Below are positions 5,406-32,156 of a stretch of 32,849 nucleotides of DNA, one piece after another. Source of the stretch: a virus (lineage: Duplodnaviria; Heunggongvirae; Uroviricota; Caudoviricetes); the IMG/VR virus record IMGVR_UViG_2778261588_000008, positions 1 through 32,849 of that record, one strand, 5' to 3'. A program made the translations under genes and the position numbers. Below the pieces are notes generated by a model. It saw nothing but the letters and a program-made list of their open reading frames with translations, searched no databases and had not been told where the DNA came from. Within the stretch, counting starts at the first letter, position 1; each line of letters starts with the position of its first letter.

Positions 5406-6095
5406 CTAACCAAATCTGTTTATGTTGAATGGTACTGATGAGATCACTTTAGACTGGATATAAAGCAGAGCTAACCCCTCTTTTTCGATGCTCCATGGTT
5501 GATAATTGGGGTTATCAGATAACACCATGATTTTGCTTCCAATTTTTTGAAGCCTTTTCACGTAGCATTCTCCATCAAAACAAAATGCATAAATACCATC
5601 GCCATCAAAATAAGTTACTGTCTTATCAAGAAAAAGAAGGTCGCCAGGTGAGATTGTGGGAGCCATACTGTCTCCTCTGGCGTTACCTATTTCTATATTT
5701 TTGAATGCCCGATTTCCAACAAGACGTCGGGCATATTCAGGATCAAGTTCTATTGAGCGCACTACATCTATCAAGTCACCACGGACATGAGTTCCATCAC
5801 CGCAACTAAACTCAACATCAAGGACATTAAACACGACGCTATCTGTTCTTGTCTGGTGTTTCTCTTGCGAGGAAAAGGTTGGTGAGGAGTCTTCACCTAA
5901 GAACCAGGATTGTGGATAACCGCTAATCTCTGATAAATGCGCGAGCTTATCACTCCGTGGAAATGTTTTTCCTGTTGTCCAGTACTGCACTGATTGCGCA
6001 CTCACACCTAACTTGCGGGCCAGTTGAGCCTGAGTCCATCCTTTTGCTTTCAGCATCGCGGCTATTCGATTTTCCGTGTTTTTGACGTTCTTCAT
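5406..6095 (-). CDS. cI: CI-type prophage repressor (N-terminal HTH + C-terminal S24/LexA-like autopeptidase)
   Basis: 229 aa; N-terminal HTH (GWTQAQLARKLGVSAQSVQYW); C-terminal G-D-S-M (Ser nucleophile) and downstream Lys in YVKRL, as in lambda CI/LexA; divergent from cro-like gene. Confidence 0.9.
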   Translation of the reverse strand: MKNVKNTENRIAAMLKAKGWTQAQLARKLGVSAQSVQYWTTGKTFPRSDKLAHLSEISGYPQSWFLGEDSSPTFSSQEKHQTRTDSVVFNVLDVEFSCGDGTHVRGDLIDVVRSIELDPEYARRLVGNRAFKNIEIGNARGDSMAPTISPGDLLFLDKTVTYFDGDGIYAFCFDGECYVKRLQKIGSKIMVLSDNPNYQPWSIEKEGLALLYIQSKVISSVPFNINRFG

Positions 6096-11950: not shown

Positions 11951-12193
11951 ATGACTTTTACGCCTGAACAATTACGTAAACAGGCACAGGAAATGTTACG
12001 ACAGGCGGAACAACTGGAAAAGACAGGCGTAACAAAAGATGCCATTCGTAAGGATATGGTGCCAGCGCTCAGGGAACTGATGCAGGCGAAACACCGTGCA
12101 CAAAAAGCAGTGGATGAGCTGGTGGATTGTGTGGCAGAGCTGGAAACCAAAGTTGGAAAGTTCGAAAAACTGGTGCAGGAGGTACTGCGCTGA
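11951..12193 (+). CDS. hypothetical coiled-coil protein (80 aa)
   Basis: ATG at 11951 (the ORF-track start at 11936 is TTG inside the dnaB stop); highly charged helical sequence. Confidence 0.45.
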   Translation: MTFTPEQLRKQAQEMLRQAEQLEKTGVTKDAIRKDMVPALRELMQAKHRAQKAVDELVDCVAELETKVGKFEKLVQEVLR

Positions 12194-12540
12194 TGCGTGA
12201 TATGTACGACGTTTTAGATCGTTGGGGGGCCTGGGCTGCAGCAGATAACAGTGGTGTGGACTGGCAGCCGATAGCAGCAGGCTTCAAGGGGCTTTTACCA
12301 CGCGGTAAAAAGTCACGTCTCCAGTGTGATGATGATGAGGGGCTCATGATCGATGGGTGCGTAGCTAGATTAAGAAAGTACAAACCAGAAGAGTATGAGT
12401 TAGTTATAGCCCATTTTGTGGTAGGGATTTCATTGCGAGCCATTGCTAAGAAGAGAAAGTGTTCGGATGGGACTATCAGGAAAGAGTTGCAAACATCGCT
12501 TGGTTTCATTGAAGGCATTGTTTGCACTCTTGCCTGTTAA
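12193..12540 (+). CDS. putative late-gene antiterminator, small Q-like (QuuD-type)
   Basis: 115 aa from ATG 12193, overlapping upstream stop. MRD..VL.RWGAWAA N-terminus and C-terminal HTH-like segment recalled as typical of small Q-type antiterminators; position after replication genes and before lysis fits Q. Homology not verified. Confidence 0.4.
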   Translation: MRDMYDVLDRWGAWAAADNSGVDWQPIAAGFKGLLPRGKKSRLQCDDDEGLMIDGCVARLRKYKPEEYELVIAHFVVGISLRAIAKKRKCSDGTIRKELQTSLGFIEGIVCTLAC

Positions 12541-12561: not shown

Positions 12562-13446
12562 TTATATTGGGCGCTTTGAATTCGATTTAAAGCGTCTTCC
12601 ACTTATTCCAGAAACCCAAATGTCTTCCTCAAGAAAGTCAAGAAGGGCTTTTATTTCTTTTTTTGATGAAGGCATGACAATTTTCTCAACACCACCAACT
12701 ATTATGGTTTGTAAGGGGAATTTAACTTTAGCAGCTTCGGATTTAAACTTTGACATATTTGGGAGTGTTAGCATCCCAGTCTGATTTATTAGTGTTACTT
12801 TATTTCTTATCACTGTATCTGCAACGGATTTTAGATCAAAACCTTGGGGAGTAGAAAATACACTAAGTTGACTAAATGCATTAAGTTCTTGGTCAGTAGC
12901 AGCAGAAAAATAGGACGACATGTCAAAAATACTTCTTAGATTAAAGAAACTCTTAAATCGTATTGTATCATTGATAATTATTGCAACTAGTTTATCATCA
13001 ACATTAAAACCGATGCTATTAGCTTTACTAAAGGTAGTTTTGCTTGCACAAAGCTTTCCAAAGAATGATTTTGAGGTATCTAAGATTTGTTTTTTGTTGA
13101 AAGTTTGTAGTGCAATAATATTGGGGTTTGCTGGCGCGTCAACACCAACAAATAATGCTTTAATATAACCAATATCAATTTGGCTAGGATCCCAGATAGG
13201 CACGGCGGTAGGCCTATTGACTGCGTCAATCAGGCGTGCAGAATCAGTAAAGTTTTGTATTTCAAAACACTCACTATGTTTTGGTGTATAACCGGCATAG
13301 AATGGTATCATATTGTTATGATGACTTTCAAAATATTGACGCTGTTGTTGGAAAATGGCCGTAACAGAAGTACTTGCTGTTGCATCAAGTTCGACTCTAA
13401 CAATTCTCGTTGCAATTGTATTATCTATTACTGCAAAAAGTGCCAT
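12562..13446 (-). CDS. hypothetical protein (294 aa), second gene of counter-oriented AT-rich cassette
   Basis: ATG at 13446 with AAAGGA SD; 6 nt downstream of the membrane-protein stop; visibly AT-rich codon usage unlike flanking phage genes; no catalytic motif recognised. Confidence 0.7.
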   Translation of the reverse strand: MALFAVIDNTIATRIVRVELDATASTSVTAIFQQQRQYFESHHNNMIPFYAGYTPKHSECFEIQNFTDSARLIDAVNRPTAVPIWDPSQIDIGYIKALFVGVDAPANPNIIALQTFNKKQILDTSKSFFGKLCASKTTFSKANSIGFNVDDKLVAIIINDTIRFKSFFNLRSIFDMSSYFSAATDQELNAFSQLSVFSTPQGFDLKSVADTVIRNKVTLINQTGMLTLPNMSKFKSEAAKVKFPLQTIIVGGVEKIVMPSSKKEIKALLDFLEEDIWVSGISGRRFKSNSKRPI

Positions 13447-13451
13447 GGTTA

Positions 13452-13970
13452 TTATCCTTTAACATGTAGAAATGTGTAGTCTGTTAATTGAATAACTGTA
13501 AATTTGATATCTTTAATATCAGTAATGACTGATTTAGAAATCAATACAAAACCTACGCCGGTGTCATCTTCAGCTTCGTAAAATTTATAACCGATAAGTG
13601 ACAATACTGGGTTAAAGTTATAGTTCTCGGAAAAGCTGATGTAAAATAACAATGACAAATAAAAGAATAACGCATATGCTTTATTTTCAGCAATAGAATC
13701 TGTTCCTAGGAGAGGGAATAAATAGCTTAAGAAATAATTAGTTACTTCTTTGTTAGCGGGAGAAACTGAACTAATATTTTTTGTCAGAGGTTCAAGTTGT
13801 TTCTCAGCATATTGAATCAGGCCTATTGCTAATAACCAACTTGCTATGCCAACGCATAAGCTATATTGCATCAGCCAAACCGTATCTTTTACATATCCAA
13901 TAAAAAATAGAGTTGCGCAAACAGGTGCAATTGAGCTGGCTGTTAATAATAAGCGTGCTAATTTGTTCAT
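13452..13970 (-). CDS. integral membrane protein (~4 TM helices), first gene of counter-oriented cassette
   Basis: 172-173 aa (two adjacent ATGs, AAAGGA SD); four hydrophobic segments then a ~60-aa soluble C-terminus; AT-rich. Confidence 0.7.
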   Translation of the reverse strand: MNKLARLLLTASSIAPVCATLFFIGYVKDTVWLMQYSLCVGIASWLLAIGLIQYAEKQLEPLTKNISSVSPANKEVTNYFLSYLFPLLGTDSIAENKAYALFFYLSLLFYISFSENYNFNPVLSLIGYKFYEAEDDTGVGFVLISKSVITDIKDIKFTVIQLTDYTFLHVKG

Positions 13971-14135
13971 CATGATATCCTTTGTACTGTTTATGCATAC
14001 AGCACTTTACATCATGTACTCCAAAGTATCTATCTTGTGAAGAATCTTACACTAAATACTACAGAAAAGTTAACGCGTACGCAAAAAGTATTATATCGTG
14101 TTAAGAGTGGTTACTTCGCCACACAGCTTAAACCC

Positions 14136-14626: not shown

Positions 14627-15673
14627 ATGGCTAATACTGTAAAAATATCCAGTTGTGAGTTAATCAACGCTGATTGCCTGAAATTTATCCGGACCTTACC
14701 GGAAAACTCTGTCGATCTGATAGTCACAGACCCGCCATACTTTAAAGTGAAGCCCGAGGGCTGGGATAACCAGTGGAAGGGCGATGATGATTACCTGCAA
14801 TGGCTGGACCAGTGTCTGGCTCAGTTCTGGCGGGTATTAAAACCTGCCGGAAGTCTTTACCTGTTCTGTGGTCATCGCCTGGCATCTGACACCGAACTCA
14901 TGATGCGTGAACGTTTTAATGTGCTGAACCACATTATCTGGGCGAAGCCGTCCGGACGCTGGAATGGGTGCAACAAGGAAAGCCTGCGGGCGTATTTCCC
15001 GGCAACAGAGCGCATTCTGTTTGCCGAACATTATCAGGGGCCATATCAGCCAAAAAATGACGGCTATGCGGCAAAAGGGCGCGAGCTTAAGCAGCACGTA
15101 ATGGCCCCGCTGATTTCTTACTTCCGTGATGCGCGTGAATCACTGGGGATAACGTCAAAACAGATAGCTGAAGCCACCGGAAAGAAAAACATGGCTTCGC
15201 ACTGGTTTGGTACCAGTCAGTGGCAGTTACCGAATGAGGCCGATTACAGTAAACTACAGGCGCTGTTTGCACGTGTGGCGGCAGAAAAACACCAGCGCGG
15301 TGAACTGGAGCAGCCACACCACCAGCTGGTCAGCACATACAGCGAACTGAACCGGCAATATGCCAGCCTGCTGGAGGAATACAAATCACTGCGGCGTTAT
15401 TTTTCCGTATCGGCTGTTGTTCCTTATACGGATGTCTGGACGCACAAGCCCGTGCAGTTTTATCCGGGTAAGCATCCCTGTGAAAAACCGGCGGATATGT
15501 TGCGTCAGATAATTACTGCCAGCAGCCGTCCAGGCGATTTGGTCGCAGATTTTTTTATGGGGTCGGGGTCGACAATAAAAGCGGCACTGTCGCTGGGACG
15601 CAGGGCGATTGGCGTGGAACTGGAAGAGGAACGTTTTAATCAGACGGCCAGAGAAATAACGAAAGATTTTTAA
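14627..15673 (+). CDS. orphan DNA N6-adenine methyltransferase (beta-class, N6_N4 MTase family)
   Basis: 348 aa; motif IV DPPY near N-terminus (LIVTDPPYF) and AdoMet motif I F.GSGST near C-terminus (FFMGSGSTI): circularly permuted beta-class order; no adjacent restriction endonuclease gene. Confidence 0.85.
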   Translation: MANTVKISSCELINADCLKFIRTLPENSVDLIVTDPPYFKVKPEGWDNQWKGDDDYLQWLDQCLAQFWRVLKPAGSLYLFCGHRLASDTELMMRERFNVLNHIIWAKPSGRWNGCNKESLRAYFPATERILFAEHYQGPYQPKNDGYAAKGRELKQHVMAPLISYFRDARESLGITSKQIAEATGKKNMASHWFGTSQWQLPNEADYSKLQALFARVAAEKHQRGELEQPHHQLVSTYSELNRQYASLLEEYKSLRRYFSVSAVVPYTDVWTHKPVQFYPGKHPCEKPADMLRQIITASSRPGDLVADFFMGSGSTIKAALSLGRRAIGVELEEERFNQTAREITKDF

Positions 15674-27113: not shown

Positions 27114-27818
27114 ATGTCCTCTAATTTTGAGCGTTCGCAACTGACGAAAATTATGATTTCGTCTGCACCGGTAACAGCAGAAACCCTGGATTCTGCCAGC
27201 TATCTTGGCCTGAGCTGTACAATCAAAGAGGTGCAGTTTACCGCAGGACAAAAGCAGGATATTGATGTCACCACGCTGTGTTCTGTTGAGCAGGAAAATA
27301 TTAACGGTCTTGGTGCCGCGTCAGAGATTTCCATGTCAGGCAACTTTTACCTCAATGCTGCCCAGAACGCGTTGCGCAGTGCCTATGACAATGACACCAC
27401 GTATGGCTTTAAAGTTATTTTTCCGTCAGGAAACGGATTTACCTTTATGGCAGAGGTGCGTCAGCATACCTGGTCTGCAGGAACCAATGGTGTTGTGGCT
27501 GCAACGTTTTCCCTGCGCCTGAAAGGTAAACCTGTGCTGGCGACAGAGCCGCTGAAAGTGAAGGTCGATTTAAACAGCACGCTGCAGGTTTCTGCCGGAG
27601 CGAAACTCGAAATGGTGGTTGAGGCTGCCGGTGGTGTGCCGCCTTATTCTTATGTCTGGAAGAAAGGTAGTTCTCCTGTTTCCGGACAGACGGCGGCAAC
27701 GTTCAGTAAGGCATTTGCAGTATCCGGTGATGCGGGCGCATATACCTGCGAGATTTCTGATTCAGCAAGCCCGGTTAACAAAGTGACCTCCACTTCCTGC
27801 ACTGTAACCGTCAGTTAA
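27114..27818 (+). CDS. major tail protein with C-terminal Ig-like domain (lambda V-like)
   Basis: 234 aa; CAGGAG SD; C-terminal ~90 aa has Ig-like pattern (PPYSYVWKKG ... GAYTCEISDS). Confidence 0.8.
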   Translation: MSSNFERSQLTKIMISSAPVTAETLDSASYLGLSCTIKEVQFTAGQKQDIDVTTLCSVEQENINGLGAASEISMSGNFYLNAAQNALRSAYDNDTTYGFKVIFPSGNGFTFMAEVRQHTWSAGTNGVVAATFSLRLKGKPVLATEPLKVKVDLNSTLQVSAGAKLEMVVEAAGGVPPYSYVWKKGSSPVSGQTAATFSKAFAVSGDAGAYTCEISDSASPVNKVTSTSCTVTVS

Positions 27819-28204
27819 TGAGGATGGGTGTGATGACTAAAAATATCCGTAATCTGGCTCTGGCAACGATGTCGGGGTTTCGCCATAAAACTGTTGATGT
27901 GCCTGAATGGGAAGGGGCAACGGTTGTATTACGGGAACCTTCTGCAGAAGCCTGGTTGCGCTGGCAGGAGATCGTTAAAGCAAAAGATGATGAGACACCG
28001 TTATCCGTTGCGGAGCGCGCCCGCCGAAATCTGGAGGCAGATGTTGAACTGTTCATTGATGTTCTGTGTGATACCGGACTGCAACCTGTATTTTCAGAGG
28101 ATGATCGTGAACAGGTGATTGCCGTGTATGGCCCGGTGCATGCGCGGCTTCTTCGGCAGTCTCTGGAACTGATCAGTGATGCCGGCGAGGTTAAAAAAAA
28201 GTAG
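27818..28204 (+). CDS. tail assembly chaperone (lambda G-like)
   Basis: 128 aa (alternative ATG at 27833 with better SD); ends ...GEVKKK* on slippery run A AAA AAG; acidic protein upstream of tape measure. Confidence 0.7.
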   Translation: MRMGVMTKNIRNLALATMSGFRHKTVDVPEWEGATVVLREPSAEAWLRWQEIVKAKDDETPLSVAERARRNLEADVELFIDVLCDTGLQPVFSEDDREQVIAVYGPVHARLLRQSLELISDAGEVKKK

Positions 28205-28506
28205 CGCTTCCGGGGATGCGTTTTCTGATGATGCTGGCACTCAGGATGGGGCGCACATTGTCAGAGTTACGCCGGGAAATGTCCGCATCAGAAATCATGA
28301 TGTGGGCAGAATTTGACAGGTTCAGCCCGCTGGGGGACGAACGGGCTGATATCCGGGCTGCCCAGATTGTTTCAGCTGTTTACGGTGCGCAGGGTGTCAA
28401 AGTACCACTGAATGATGCGCTTCTTCAGTGGGAGCATGAATCAGAAGAAAATAAATGCGATGATCCATTTATTGGATTAGAGGTTGCTCTAATGTCTTCA
28501 CTATAA
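28198..28506 (+). CDS. T-frame extension of tail assembly chaperone (G-T fusion via -1 programmed frameshift)
   Basis: Frame -1 relative to G is open from the slippery heptamer A-AAA-AAG (28195-28201) through 28506, reading ..KK-VALPG-MRFLMML.. with no intervening stop. Confidence 0.6.
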   Translation, partial: KVALPGMRFLMMLALRMGRTLSELRREMSASEIMMWAEFDRFSPLGDERADIRAAQIVSAVYGAQGVKVPLNDALLQWEHESEENKCDDPFIGLEVALMSSL

Positions 28507-28564
28507 GATAATTTTTTAATCGTTTTGAAATTGAATGCTTTACTCAAAGCCAGGAGGATTAATC

Positions 28565-28906
28565 ATGAGAAAATCAGTGGTGACATTAGCTTGTTTGTTT
28601 TTTATTAGTGCATGTAAGCCATCAGATAATTATGTTATTTCTTTAGGGGAAAACTTAGTTAAAGATAAGCTTATTGATCCTGATAGTGCAAAATTTAATT
28701 CTTTTTTTCATAAGTCAGGTGATTTATATGGTTATGTTTGTGGTGATGTTAATTCAAAAAACACGTTTGGTGGATATACAGGGAAAAAGCCATATTTTGT
28801 TTATTTGGAAGTTGTGGATGGAAAAGTTAAGAGTCATGGGACTGTAACAATTGTTAATGATCATGATCCAAGCAGTATGGAAAAATATAAGTTGTTTTGC
28901 CAATAA
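28565..28906 (+). CDS. lipoprotein moron (113 aa), unknown function
   Basis: ATG 28565 with AGGAGG SD (ORF-track start 28535 lacks SD); signal peptide with lipobox FISAC; visibly AT-rich; followed by terminator. Confidence 0.6.
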   Translation: MRKSVVTLACLFFISACKPSDNYVISLGENLVKDKLIDPDSAKFNSFFHKSGDLYGYVCGDVNSKNTFGGYTGKKPYFVYLEVVDGKVKSHGTVTIVNDHDPSSMEKYKLFCQ

Positions 28907-28920
28907 TTATCATCTTAAAA

Positions 28921-28941
28921 AACCGCAGAAGCGGTTTTTTT
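28921..28941 (+). terminator. intrinsic terminator after lipoprotein moron
   Basis: AACCGC-AGAA-GCGGTT hairpin followed by T-run. Confidence 0.7.
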
Positions 28942-28955
28942 ATGGGGTAAAGTAA

Positions 28956-31900
28956 ATGGCGACATTACGTGAGCTGATTATTAAAATCTCGGCAAATTCC
29001 CGGTCATTCCAGTCAGAGATCTCCCGGGCTTCGCGTATGGGGCAGGATTACTACCGTACCATGCAGAACGGAGGCCGGCAGTCCGCTGCTGCATCCCGTG
29101 AAATGCGGCGTGCACTGGCAGAAGTGACGGATCAGATAAATACAGCTAAATCTTCGGCACTGAATATGGCGGGGGCATTTGCCGGGGCTTTTGCTACCGG
29201 TCATCTTATTTCTCTCGCCGATGAGTGGAATTCAGTAAATGCCCGTCTGAAGCAGGCCTCACAGTCCACTGATGATTTTCAGGTATCACAACGTGAATTA
29301 ATGGCAATCAGCCAGAGAACGGGAACGGCGTTTTCTGATAACGCCAGCCTTTTTGCCCGCTCTGCAGCTTCCATGCGGGAGTATGGCTACAGTTCTGAGG
29401 AGGTACTGAAAGTCACCGAGGCTATCTCCACGGGCCTGAAATTATCCGGTGCCAGTGCAGCAGAAGCCAGTTCGGTGATCACGCAGTTCAGTCAGGCACT
29501 GGCGCAGGGAGTGCTGCGCGGTGAAGAATTTAACTCTGTGAATGAGAACGGCGATCGTGTTATTCGTGCGCTGGCTGCGGGAATGGGTGTTGCCCGTAAG
29601 GATCTGAAGGCCATGGCGGATAACGGAAAGTTGACCGCCGATAAGGTTGTTCCTGCACTGATTAGTCAGCTTGGGGCGTTGCGTGATGAATATGCAGCAA
29701 TGCCTGATACGGTTTCATCCTCTGCAACCAAAGTTGAAAACGCCTTTATGGCCTGGGTTGGTGGTGCGAACGAAGCAAGCGGAGTGACGAAGACGCTCTC
29801 CGGTGTGCTGAATGGTATTGCAGGCAATATTGACACTGTGGCAACCGCTGCCGGTGCTCTGGTTGCCGTCGGGGTAGCCCGATATTTTGGCAATATGGCA
29901 TCTTCTGCTGGATCTGCAACTGCCGGATTAATTACTGCAGCCAGAAACGAAGTAGCTCTTGCGGAAGCGCAGCTCCGGGGGACGCAGATAGCAACCGCCA
30001 GGGCGCGTGCGGCGGTTTATCGTGCGCAACAGGCGGTCGCGGCTACCCGTGGTACTGAAAGACAGGCAGCCGCAGAAGCGAAACTGGCTGCTGCCCAGGC
30101 ATCACTTACCCGTAATATTGCGGCCAGAACAGCAGCACAGACAACGCTGAATACTGTCACGTCAGTGGGGAGTCGTTTATTAAGTGGTGCGCTGGGGCTG
30201 GTTGGTGGTGTGCCGGGACTCGTCATGCTGGGGGCGACGGCCTGGTACACGATGTATCAGAATCAGGAGCAGGCCAGAGAATCTGCACGCCAGTATGCCG
30301 CAACAATCGACGAAATTCGCCAGAAAACGTCGGCAATGTCGCTTCCTGAAGCGTCAGATAATGAGGAAAAGACGCGGCAGGCACTGGAGGAACAAAATCG
30401 CCTGATTAACGAACAGGAAGGAAAAATTCGCGGACTGAAAAATCAAATTGCTGATTATCAACGTTGGCTTGATGAAAGTTCGCAGAGTGGTTCTGGTGCT
30501 GAAATCATCCTTAAAGGGCTTGCAGAAGCAACAAATCAACTGGCAGTTGAACAGTCCCGTCTCACACAAATGCAGGGCAAAGCGCAATCCATTCAGGATG
30601 TGCTTGCCGGGCTGGAGGAGCGACGAGTGGCGTTGATCCGTCAACAGGCAGCGGAACAAAACAAAGCGTATCAGTCCCTGTTGATCATGAATGGGAAGCA
30701 TACCGAGTTTAATCGCCTTCTCGGGCTTGGTAATGAATTACTTCAGCAGCGACAGGGGCTGGTGAATGTACCGTTACGGCTACCACAGGCAACTCTGGAT
30801 GATAAACAGCAGACCGCACTGAATAACAGCAAGCGCGAACTGGCTCTGTCCCGCCTTAAGGGGGAAGCGCGTGAGCGTGCCCGACTGGGCTATGCTGCGG
30901 ATGATCTCGGCTTTGTGGGAGAGGCGTATCGGACAGCCAGACAGAATTATATCAATAACTCACTGGATGCCTGGCGAAATAACCAGGCAAATAAACCCAA
31001 AGCGCATAAAAAGACCGAAGCGGAAAAAACAGAAGATATTTATAAACGGCTGATTAAACAGCAAAAAGAACAGATAGCACTGGCAGGGCAGAATACTGAA
31101 CTGGCTAAGATGAAATATCAGGTCAGTCAGGGCGAATTATCAACCCTGTCAGAAGCGCAGAAAAAAACGCTTTTGCAGAATGCAGCACTCATCGACCAGA
31201 AAAAGATTCGTGAGCAGCTTGCCGCGTATGAAAGCAGTCTGGCGGACAGTAATGCCAGTGCCCGGGCATCTGACGACGCGCAGTTGCTGGGATATGGTGA
31301 AGGCTCACGGATGCGTGAACGACTCCAGGAAATGTGGAGTATCCGGCATGAGTTTGAGCAGAAAAATAACGAGCTGCTGAGACAGTATCAGGCCGGAGAA
31401 ATTGAAGAAGCCCTGTGGAAACAGGAGAAAGAACTGAATAAAAAATATCTGGAAGAGCGTCTCAGCGATCAGCAGGATTATTATGCAAAGGCCGATGCTT
31501 TACGTAATAACTGGAATGCCGGACTCCAGGAGGGACTGACCAACTGGGCAGACAGTGCCACCGATTATGCTTCACAGGCGGCAGATGCTGTTGTTTCCAC
31601 GATGGACGGGCTGGTATCAAATATTTCCGATGCACTGGCCGGGAATGTTGTGGAGTGGAGGAACTGGGGGAGTTCAGTTCTCCGGGAAGTTTCAAAAATT
31701 CTGATGAATGCGGCCATTGTTAACGGACTGAAGTCACTCTCCGGTGCCGGAGGGTGGCTTGGTACGGTCGGCGGATGGATTTCGGGGGCGGTGGCAAACG
31801 CAAAAGGTGGTGTTTACACATCGGCAAATCTGAGTGCTTACAGTAACACTATTGTGGATACACCGACGTATTTTGCTTTTGCGAAAGGTGCCGGGCTGAT

Positions 31901-32156
31901 GGGCGAGGCCGGGCCTGAAGCTATCATGCCACTGACACGGGCAGCGGACGGCTCTCTTGGGGTCAGGGCCATTGGCAATGTGAATGGTGGCGGTGGATTT
32001 GTTTATTCTCCCGTGTATCACATTAGCATTCAGAATCAAGGGAGCAATGGCGAGATAGATACGCGCTCAGCCAGGGGACTGGTGGATCTGATCGACAGCA
32101 GGGTTGTGTCAATTATGCAGTCATCGCGTCGGGATGGAGGATTATACAGTGCCTGA
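28956..32156 (+). CDS. tail tape measure protein
   Basis: 1066 aa; Ala/Gln-rich coiled-coil interior, hydrophobic Gly-rich stretches, located between GT chaperone and M/L genes. Confidence 0.9.
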   Translation: MATLRELIIKISANSRSFQSEISRASRMGQDYYRTMQNGGRQSAAASREMRRALAEVTDQINTAKSSALNMAGAFAGAFATGHLISLADEWNSVNARLKQASQSTDDFQVSQRELMAISQRTGTAFSDNASLFARSAASMREYGYSSEEVLKVTEAISTGLKLSGASAAEASSVITQFSQALAQGVLRGEEFNSVNENGDRVIRALAAGMGVARKDLKAMADNGKLTADKVVPALISQLGALRDEYAAMPDTVSSSATKVENAFMAWVGGANEASGVTKTLSGVLNGIAGNIDTVATAAGALVAVGVARYFGNMASSAGSATAGLITAARNEVALAEAQLRGTQIATARARAAVYRAQQAVAATRGTERQAAAEAKLAAAQASLTRNIAARTAAQTTLNTVTSVGSRLLSGALGLVGGVPGLVMLGATAWYTMYQNQEQARESARQYAATIDEIRQKTSAMSLPEASDNEEKTRQALEEQNRLINEQEGKIRGLKNQIADYQRWLDESSQSGSGAEIILKGLAEATNQLAVEQSRLTQMQGKAQSIQDVLAGLEERRVALIRQQAAEQNKAYQSLLIMNGKHTEFNRLLGLGNELLQQRQGLVNVPLRLPQATLDDKQQTALNNSKRELALSRLKGEARERARLGYAADDLGFVGEAYRTARQNYINNSLDAWRNNQANKPKAHKKTEAEKTEDIYKRLIKQQKEQIALAGQNTELAKMKYQVSQGELSTLSEAQKKTLLQNAALIDQKKIREQLAAYESSLADSNASARASDDAQLLGYGEGSRMRERLQEMWSIRHEFEQKNNELLRQYQAGEIEEALWKQEKELNKKYLEERLSDQQDYYAKADALRNNWNAGLQEGLTNWADSATDYASQAADAVVSTMDGLVSNISDALAGNVVEWRNWGSSVLREVSKILMNAAIVNGLKSLSGAGGWLGTVGGWISGAVANAKGGVYTSANLSAYSNTIVDTPTYFAFAKGAGLMGEAGPEAIMPLTRAADGSLGVRAIGNVNGGGGFVYSPVYHISIQNQGSNGEIDTRSARGLVDLIDSRVVSIMQSSRRDGGLYSA

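Follow-up and report, generated by a model that had tools for sequence, protein, structure and literature searches.

A small lipoprotein gene in the tail operon of the prophage IMGVR_UViG_2778261588_000008 is dispensable cargo, a moron, and not a part of the phage tail. The window analyzed here is the whole stretch of this IMG/VR record (32,849 nucleotides); it is a lambdoid Escherichia coli prophage with HK97-type head genes and lambda-like M/L/K/I/J tail-tip genes. The lipoprotein gene (positions 28565-28906, + strand, 113 aa) lies between the G-T tail assembly chaperone genes and the gene for the tape measure protein (TMP). Related genes turn up repeatedly in prophages as morons of low GC, and their commonest place is immediately before a TMP gene. 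By analogy with morons of known function, we tentatively propose, with somewhat less than even confidence, that the lipoprotein would exclude incoming phages at the level of the cell envelope.

The open reading frame begins with the N-terminus MRKSVVTLACLFFISACKPS and is preceded by a Shine-Dalgarno sequence AGGAGG (28552-28557) spaced 7 nt from the ATG. The signal peptide (28565..28612, +) comprises an n-region MRK, a hydrophobic core SVVTLACLFF and the lipobox residues I-S-A, giving a lipobox FISA|C17 (I-S-A-C) in which the Cys17 codon occupies 28613-28615 and Cys17 is the predicted acylation site. The charged n-region, the hydrophobic core and a lipobox of the form [LVI][ASTVI][GAS]C about 15-35 residues from the start, all expected of an Lgt/LspA substrate, are thus present in the sequence, and the ACKPS segment is almost unvaried among 12 homologues. 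The +2 residue is Lys18 and not the Asp of the E. coli Lol avoidance rule, suggesting that after cleavage and lipidation at Cys17 the mature lipoprotein would be sorted via Lol to the outer membrane, with its disulfide-bonded domain of about 95 aa facing the periplasm by default assumption.

The mature lipoprotein (97 aa; 28613..28906, +) is predicted by AlphaFold2, with a mean pLDDT of 87.8, to fold as a cystatin/NTF2-like alpha+beta roll, in which a helix (residues 21-33) precedes four antiparallel strands and a second helix (residues 102-112); Cys59 and Cys112 are conserved. The gene is under purifying selection. The ratio of non-synonymous to synonymous substitution rates between the window allele and that of E. 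coli PK8241 (locus L008) is 0.08, reflecting 16.5 synonymous against 6.5 non-synonymous differences. Taken together, the sequence features show a functional, selected gene for a small lipoprotein of predicted Sec/Lsp type, which bears out an earlier note that had claimed a 113-aa lipoprotein gene with a FISAC lipobox and an AGGAGG ribosome-binding site. The only annotation of the product is phrog_2320 ('unknown function'), which matches with an E-value of 2e-33 across residues 1-113. Profile searches returned no Pfam or NCBIfam match, none of the PADLOC 2.0 families matched at E <= 10, and sequence searches identified no relative in the PDB. Variants of the gene that are truncated or frameshifted (87-93 aa; P0003, P0009 and P0013, from Logan assemblies) diverge past homopolymer-rich stretches and could be assembly errors or pseudogenes.

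The distribution of the gene among close relatives identifies it as cargo. The junction of G, T and TMP genes is found at 95-99% identity in 903 of 5,426 complete E. coli genomes, and only 18 of these 903 carry the lipoprotein segment, invariably at the G-T/TMP site and nowhere else in the genome. The remaining junctions (~885, or ~98%) are empty, despite 95-99% identity of the flanking G, T and TMP genes; the corresponding span measures 1097-1098 bp when empty and 1501 bp when occupied, a difference of ~403 bp. The lipoprotein is also absent from HK97 and HK022. The strains that have the gene originate from gut, cattle, poultry and slurry. Because the gene is missing from most E. coli junctions, it is dispensable for tail production. 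Its GC content of 0.30 contrasts with the 0.49-0.52 of the tube, G, T and TMP genes. Two hallmarks of a moron as described by Juhala et al. (2000), whose other marks are a promoter and a terminator of its own and expression from the repressed prophage, namely presence or absence at a precise site in close relatives and a base composition unlike that of the neighbors, are therefore found here. The earlier note had described a gene of lower GC than the flanking tail genes that interrupts an otherwise conserved GT/TMP junction, and both statements hold.

These data also bear on a structural role, which the earlier note had named as one of two findings that would overturn its proposal. That the lipoprotein is a structural or assembly component of the tail is suggested solely by its position among tail genes, and we consider it highly improbable: nearly all related junctions dispense with the gene despite their near-identical flanks, the lipoprotein signal peptide implies export away from the cytoplasm where tails assemble, and homologues occupy slots outside tail modules, such as that between ogr and int in SEN5.

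The imported segment extends beyond the gene. Aligned with the empty site of strain AZ147, the window diverges from ~28436, inside T, up to the TMP start codon. GC drops to 0.31 over the final 70 nt of T, from 0.54 in the remainder, and this low-GC 3' end (28436..28506, +) still encodes a T-like C-terminus. The low GC and divergence of the T 3' end argue for an imported block spanning 28436-28955; the AT-richness noted earlier is thus real but not limited to the gene. Synonymous divergence between the window and PK8241 alleles is 0.29 for the lipoprotein, 0.16 for T and 0.01 for G, a contrast suggesting a mosaic boundary, formed by recombination, somewhere between G and the 3' part of T. The block probably derives from a related tail module of lower GC, gained through recombination inside T and not by insertion into the intergenic spacer. 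Around it, G (27833..28204, +) matches PF06222 (2.4e-58) and contains an A8 slippery run (28193-28200) for the -1 frameshift into T; the T frame (28216..28506, +) matches PF06223 (3.4e-18); an intergenic leader (28507..28564, +) carries the AGGAGG and weak promoter matches; and the TMP gene (28956..32156, +) encodes 1066 aa with matches to PF20155, PF06120 and PF09718.

Directly upstream of the TMP gene lies a hairpin with a U-run in the shape of an intrinsic terminator (28917..28941, +). It reads AAAAAACCGC-AGAA-GCGGTTTTTT at 28917-28940, followed by one further T. Its folding free energy is -12.6 to -15.3 kcal/mol (z ~ -3.7 to -4.0), and none of 200 shuffled sequences folds equally well. An automated terminator scan made no call at 28917-28940, likely because the A and T runs pair and consume the T tail. 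In the empty E. coli site, AACCGC-TTCG-GCGGTTTTTTTT stands at the equivalent position before the TMP start (locus L001, 2216-2236), and comparable hairpins followed by U-runs are present ahead of the TMP gene in a Citrobacter prophage (L009, same stem), in an Enterobacterales prophage (L014, different stem, GCCC/GGGC), in HK97 (L097, after gene 15) and in ES18 (L004, after gp20). The stems vary by lineage (CCGC/GCGG, GCCC/GGGC and CCCGC/GCGGG) and are kept with or without a moron. Since the hairpin is also present in empty sites and in these other phages, it is probably not the lipoprotein gene's own, as judged by sequence comparison, but a resident of the TMP-upstream region in front of which cargo is placed. 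The earlier description of a strong hairpin terminator is therefore correct as to the hairpin and probably incorrect as to ownership. As the prophage encodes a Q antiterminator, late transcription should read through the hairpin, whose possible roles in the late operon include attenuation of TMP dosage, RNA stability and a recombination landmark.

The lipoprotein belongs to a very large family. In an exhaustive profile search, 9,824 representative clusters (~10^4, at 50% identity) passed E <= 1e-3, and 531 passed E <= 1e-10. Among 126 diverse members, the residues conserved in >=90% are L36, D38, P39, S41, A42, F44, C59, G60, N63, K65, N66, G69, Y71, G73 and C112, and all of these near-invariant residues are present in the window lipoprotein. 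They define a motif composed of a DPxSAxF element and a CGxVNxKNxxGxYxG hairpin loop, the latter given more fully as CGxVNAKNxxGGYxG, together with a probable C59-C112 disulfide. A hydrophobic N-terminal leader occurs in 131 of the 146 top matches and a lipobox-like site in 90, so that the family is predicted to be extracytoplasmic. Some members (P0036 and P0063) are fused to a C-terminal SPOR peptidoglycan-binding domain. One such fusion is phage-borne, in Pseudomonas phage AUS531phi (L006, 3501-4154), where it occupies the moron slot between the tail genes K and I.

A scan of one genome per species yielded 329 relatives in alpha-, beta- and gammaproteobacteria, Campylobacter, Bdellovibrionales and one planctomycete, and further relatives occur in phages of Klebsiella, Pseudomonas, Acinetobacter, Salmonella, Mycobacterium abscessus, Gordonia and Rhodobacter. 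Of 80 family loci, 70 have a family gene of lower GC than its flanks (median difference -0.07). Orthologues with 58% and 48% identity occupy the T-TMP slot of prophages in Citrobacter and other Enterobacterales, where their GC is 0.35-0.36 compared with ~0.5-0.55 for the flanks; the orthologues overall span 0.33-0.36. Among 150 immediate-neighbor open reading frames from 76 species-level loci, the commonest Pfam matches are TMP_3 (4) and TMP_2 (4), alongside S24 repressors (4), K-like NlpC/P60+JAB proteins (3), Bro-N (2) and Rha (2). By Pfam or tblastn, a TMP gene follows the family gene immediately in Brenneria, Atlantibacter, two Xenorhabdus, three Pseudomonas species, Janthinobacterium and Campylobacter concisus, and these adjoining TMPs belong to different families. 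Other members lie in the K-I slot (Fraca, LMessi, AUS531phi and L017-L019), just past the TMP gene (L020 and L095), beside S24 repressors or, in the P2-like phage SEN5, between ogr and int. Members of the family thus recur as prophage morons of low GC, positioned most often just ahead of TMP genes. Outside this pattern, a Cycloclasticus metagenome-assembled genome (L070, 4994-9042) encodes a 305-aa member directly upstream of a type I restriction R subunit (HSDR_N/ResIII/EcoEI_R_C), an arrangement that may represent a defense-island context outside prophages.

The slot itself has a well-studied precedent. Gene 15 of HK97 (Juhala 2000; Cumby 2012), the first element to be termed a moron, lies between the tail chaperone and TMP genes, and its product is a superinfection exclusion protein expressed from the prophage (PMC3594210). 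The HK97 record places gene 15 in the chaperone/TMP gap, and a second moron slot, between K and I, is marked in the HK97 and HK022 records. Because the window T is 63% identical to that of HK97 and the N-terminal 333 aa of the TMP are 84% identical (tblastn), the window slot is orthologous to that of gene 15. In both phages the slot holds a gene for a small envelope-targeted product, followed by a hairpin and U-run before the TMP start. The products differ: gp15 is a 62-aa inner-membrane, YebO-like protein of phrog_5031, a type expected to have a single transmembrane helix and no lipobox, whereas the window encodes a lipoprotein of 113 aa, of outer-membrane type and with a globular domain. Of the two, only gp15 has a demonstrated function. 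Homology to gp15 or YebO was rejected, given that no alignment with the window lipoprotein was obtained and the PHROG families differ.

A second comparison is provided by gp20 of ES18, an unrelated Salmonella phage. Like the window protein, gp20 belongs to phrog_2320 (3.2e-35; tblastn 1e-7); its gene likewise immediately precedes that for the TMP and has a terminator hairpin on its 3' side. It is longer (151 aa), shares ~41% identity over the core only, and stands beside two other morons. Its record is annotated 'possible moron; function unknown'. The ES18 slot (L004, 1924-4300) contains three annotated 'possible morons' in a row, gp18, the DUF4041 protein gp19 and gp20, with annotated terminators past gp19 and past gp20, which shows that the chaperone-TMP slot can accumulate cargo.

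Cor (phi80, N15 and HK022) and Llp (T5) are lipoproteins that inactivate FhuA, and the earlier note had reasoned from them to a receptor-blocking exclusion factor. The protein class is indeed shared, all being small phage lipoproteins with outer-membrane-type sorting signals, but homology does not extend beyond the signal peptide. HK022 Cor gave no BLASTP alignment with the window lipoprotein or its family profile beyond an hhalign match over only 20 signal-peptide columns, and the window lipoprotein had no phrog_1119 match at E <= 1; T5 Llp aligned over only 19 signal-peptide columns in hhalign, with a BLASTP E-value of 9.6. The profile comparison that the note had called for thus found the mature domains unrelated. 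The mature parts of Cor and Llp measure ~60 aa, compared with 97 aa in the window lipoprotein; they fall in phrog_1119, as opposed to phrog_2320, and their genes lie near receptor-binding or J genes and not near the TMP gene.

Among other lipoproteins of phages, Ltp of Streptococcus phage TP-J34 was reported to target the TMP (Bebeacua 2013, as cited in PMC3952083). Ltp would be a functional analogue of the mechanism we favor, with the differences that its host is Gram-positive, that it is surface-exposed and that it is encoded in the lysogeny module. Bor of lambda, an outer-membrane lipoprotein moron of a lambdoid prophage (PMC3594210), resembles the window protein in class and differs in locus and in its phenotype, which is serum resistance and not a phage-related one; the Pfam search of the window lipoprotein returned nothing at all, hence no match to the Bor model. 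The Tai/Tab tail-assembly-interference systems were also considered and set aside, as Tai genes lie at other places in phage genomes and the source paper draws no link to the lipoprotein family. As far as sequence comparison can tell, the window lipoprotein belongs to no characterized exclusion family.

The proposal of envelope-level exclusion draws on the precedent of gp15 in the same slot, on Ltp and its targeting of the TMP, and on the bias of tail-operon morons toward envelope proteins that alter phage sensitivity. The lipoprotein would be made in the lysogen and/or during late lytic growth, the latter through Q-antiterminated read-through, and would alter the envelope such that incoming phages are excluded. 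The favored target would be a conserved step, in the periplasm or at the cell wall, by which siphophages deliver their DNA, involving passage of the tail tip or TMP, or the peptidoglycan. We lean slightly toward such a step over the plugging of one outer-membrane receptor because the loop motif is kept across classes with differing outer-membrane proteins and because some relatives bear SPOR domains. The SPOR fusions hint that the family may work close to peptidoglycan, and the sharing of the motif by relatives from alpha-, beta- and gammaproteobacteria, Campylobacter and actinobacterial phages suggests a conserved target. A far-reaching extension, in which the family would comprise widespread, unrecognized prophage-borne periplasmic exclusion factors encoded next to TMP genes, seems to us rather doubtful. 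Such factors would stop siphophages of Proteobacteria at large from delivering their genomes at the conserved periplasmic or cell-wall stage, and would be to Gram-negative hosts what Ltp is to Gram-positive ones, using a conserved ligand-binding loop.

Several results weigh against exclusion. The PADLOC, Pfam and NCBIfam searches with the lipoprotein were all null, and literature searches, within the libraries covered, found no characterization or functional data for any family member. Most of the 80 family loci have no recognizable phage gene adjoining them, and the ancestral role may therefore be a housekeeping one unrelated to phages. The adjacency to TMP genes may reflect the chaperone/TMP junction being one of the few insertion-tolerant points in a tail operon. 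Co-divergence of the lipoprotein with the TMP was also considered, its identities to the Citrobacter orthologues tracking those of G and T, and was dropped: the K-I-slot homologues (55% identity) are as similar to the window lipoprotein as those of the T-TMP slot (58% and 48%), so there is no specific co-divergence with the TMP. Finally, an automated scan found no promoter-like site on the + strand upstream of the gene, and no sigma-70 match there rises above background, leaving expression in the lysogen putative. The best sigma-70-like matches to a position weight matrix, ATGTCT-17-TTTAAT and TTGCTC-17-GATAAT, score 8.5 and 7.9, respectively, compared with a 90th percentile of 9.0 for random 200-nt segments of the window and a median of 8.3 for composition-matched shuffles. 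By the same matrix, the region upstream of HK97 gene 15 reaches 7.6, and yet this gene is known to be expressed from the prophage.

The most credible alternative to exclusion, which we hold to be possible though on the unlikely side, is a host-fitness moron unrelated to phages that would confer serum or antimicrobial resistance (as Bor does), tolerance of envelope stress, adhesion or modulation of peptidoglycan hydrolases such as lysozyme or type VI effectors. Bor provides a precedent for an outer-membrane lipoprotein moron (PMC3594210), and the size and wide distribution of the family, the SPOR fusions, the many chromosomal members with no recognizable phage neighbor and the gut, cattle, poultry and slurry origins of the carriers all accord with such a role. 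It does not predict the strong recurrence in tail modules beside TMP genes, and the lipoprotein resembles none of the Pfam families, Bor, MliC/PliC and Ivy included. A blocker of the Cor/Llp type would instead inactivate one receptor (FhuA, LamB, OmpC, BtuB or another) from the periplasm, block adsorption and shield progeny from debris. The window protein is of the same class, a small Cys-containing outer-membrane lipoprotein from a phage tail region, and the gene order together with the Q gene suggests late lytic synthesis, which would be useful against debris. This explanation appears unlikely, however, given the unrelated mature domain and different PHROG family, the indication from SPOR-fused relatives of the cell wall over a barrel protein, and the occurrence of the motif in thousands of proteins from phyla with differing outer-membrane proteins, which would be unexpected for a binder of one receptor.

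Rather less likely still is a helper of the lytic cycle that would be expressed only from the late operon, would disrupt the envelope for release or prevent re-adsorption, and would have no role in the lysogen. The gene is embedded, on the same strand, in the Q-dependent late operon and has no promoter above background, as such a helper would. Against this stand the ~98% of near-identical prophages that lack the gene and are presumably viable, the separate holin/endolysin cassette that the prophage carries elsewhere, and the equally poor promoter score of HK97 gene 15, which is prophage-expressed all the same (PMC3594210).

Morons of tail operons are a major route by which prophages alter the host surface and phage sensitivity, and their functions are mostly blank. 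A moron in the prototype slot is of an already known kind, and ES18 gp20 of the same family had been flagged as a possible moron in GenBank. What is mildly interesting is the family, which is very large, has no Pfam, NCBIfam or PADLOC model and stands repeatedly beside TMP genes. The present case joins the prototype moron slot to a family that is unnamed in the curated libraries searched and that adjoins TMP genes again and again in unrelated siphophages of several bacterial classes. Should the family prove to be an exclusion or envelope-modifying factor, thousands of 'hypothetical lipoproteins' would gain an annotation, and a new mechanism would be added to the few entry-blocking proteins; otherwise, the window lipoprotein would be one more ordinary moron.

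The prophage carries further cargo. Its integrase (1-1314, -), S24 repressor (5406-6095, -) and Q antiterminator (12127-12540) genes belong to a lambdoid layout, and in the closest E. coli genome, strain E21845/O/A, the prophage adjoins mlrA. A complete Kiwa pair for anti-phage defense lies directly past the Q gene on the opposite strand (12562-13973, -), comprising KwaB (12562-13446, -; PADLOC PDLC00225, 3.9e-148) and KwaA (13452-13973, -; PDLC00216, 1.9e-83). Strain E21845/O/A apparently has ORF6N/HTH genes in place of this pair; since the Kiwa hotspot differs in that strain, the prophage has at least two variable cargo sites. Between the Kiwa genes and the lysis genes is a DNA methyltransferase gene (14627-15673, +; PF01555, 1e-43; PADLOC MTase_II, 1.9e-152), and as no adjacent nuclease was noted the enzyme may be an orphan of the anti-restriction type. 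In the tail operon, the major tail tube protein (27114-27818, +) has a C-terminal Ig-like domain (Ig_2/Ig_3, with Hoc-like matches in PHROGs, at about residues 124-234), a typical decoration of lambdoid tail tubes.

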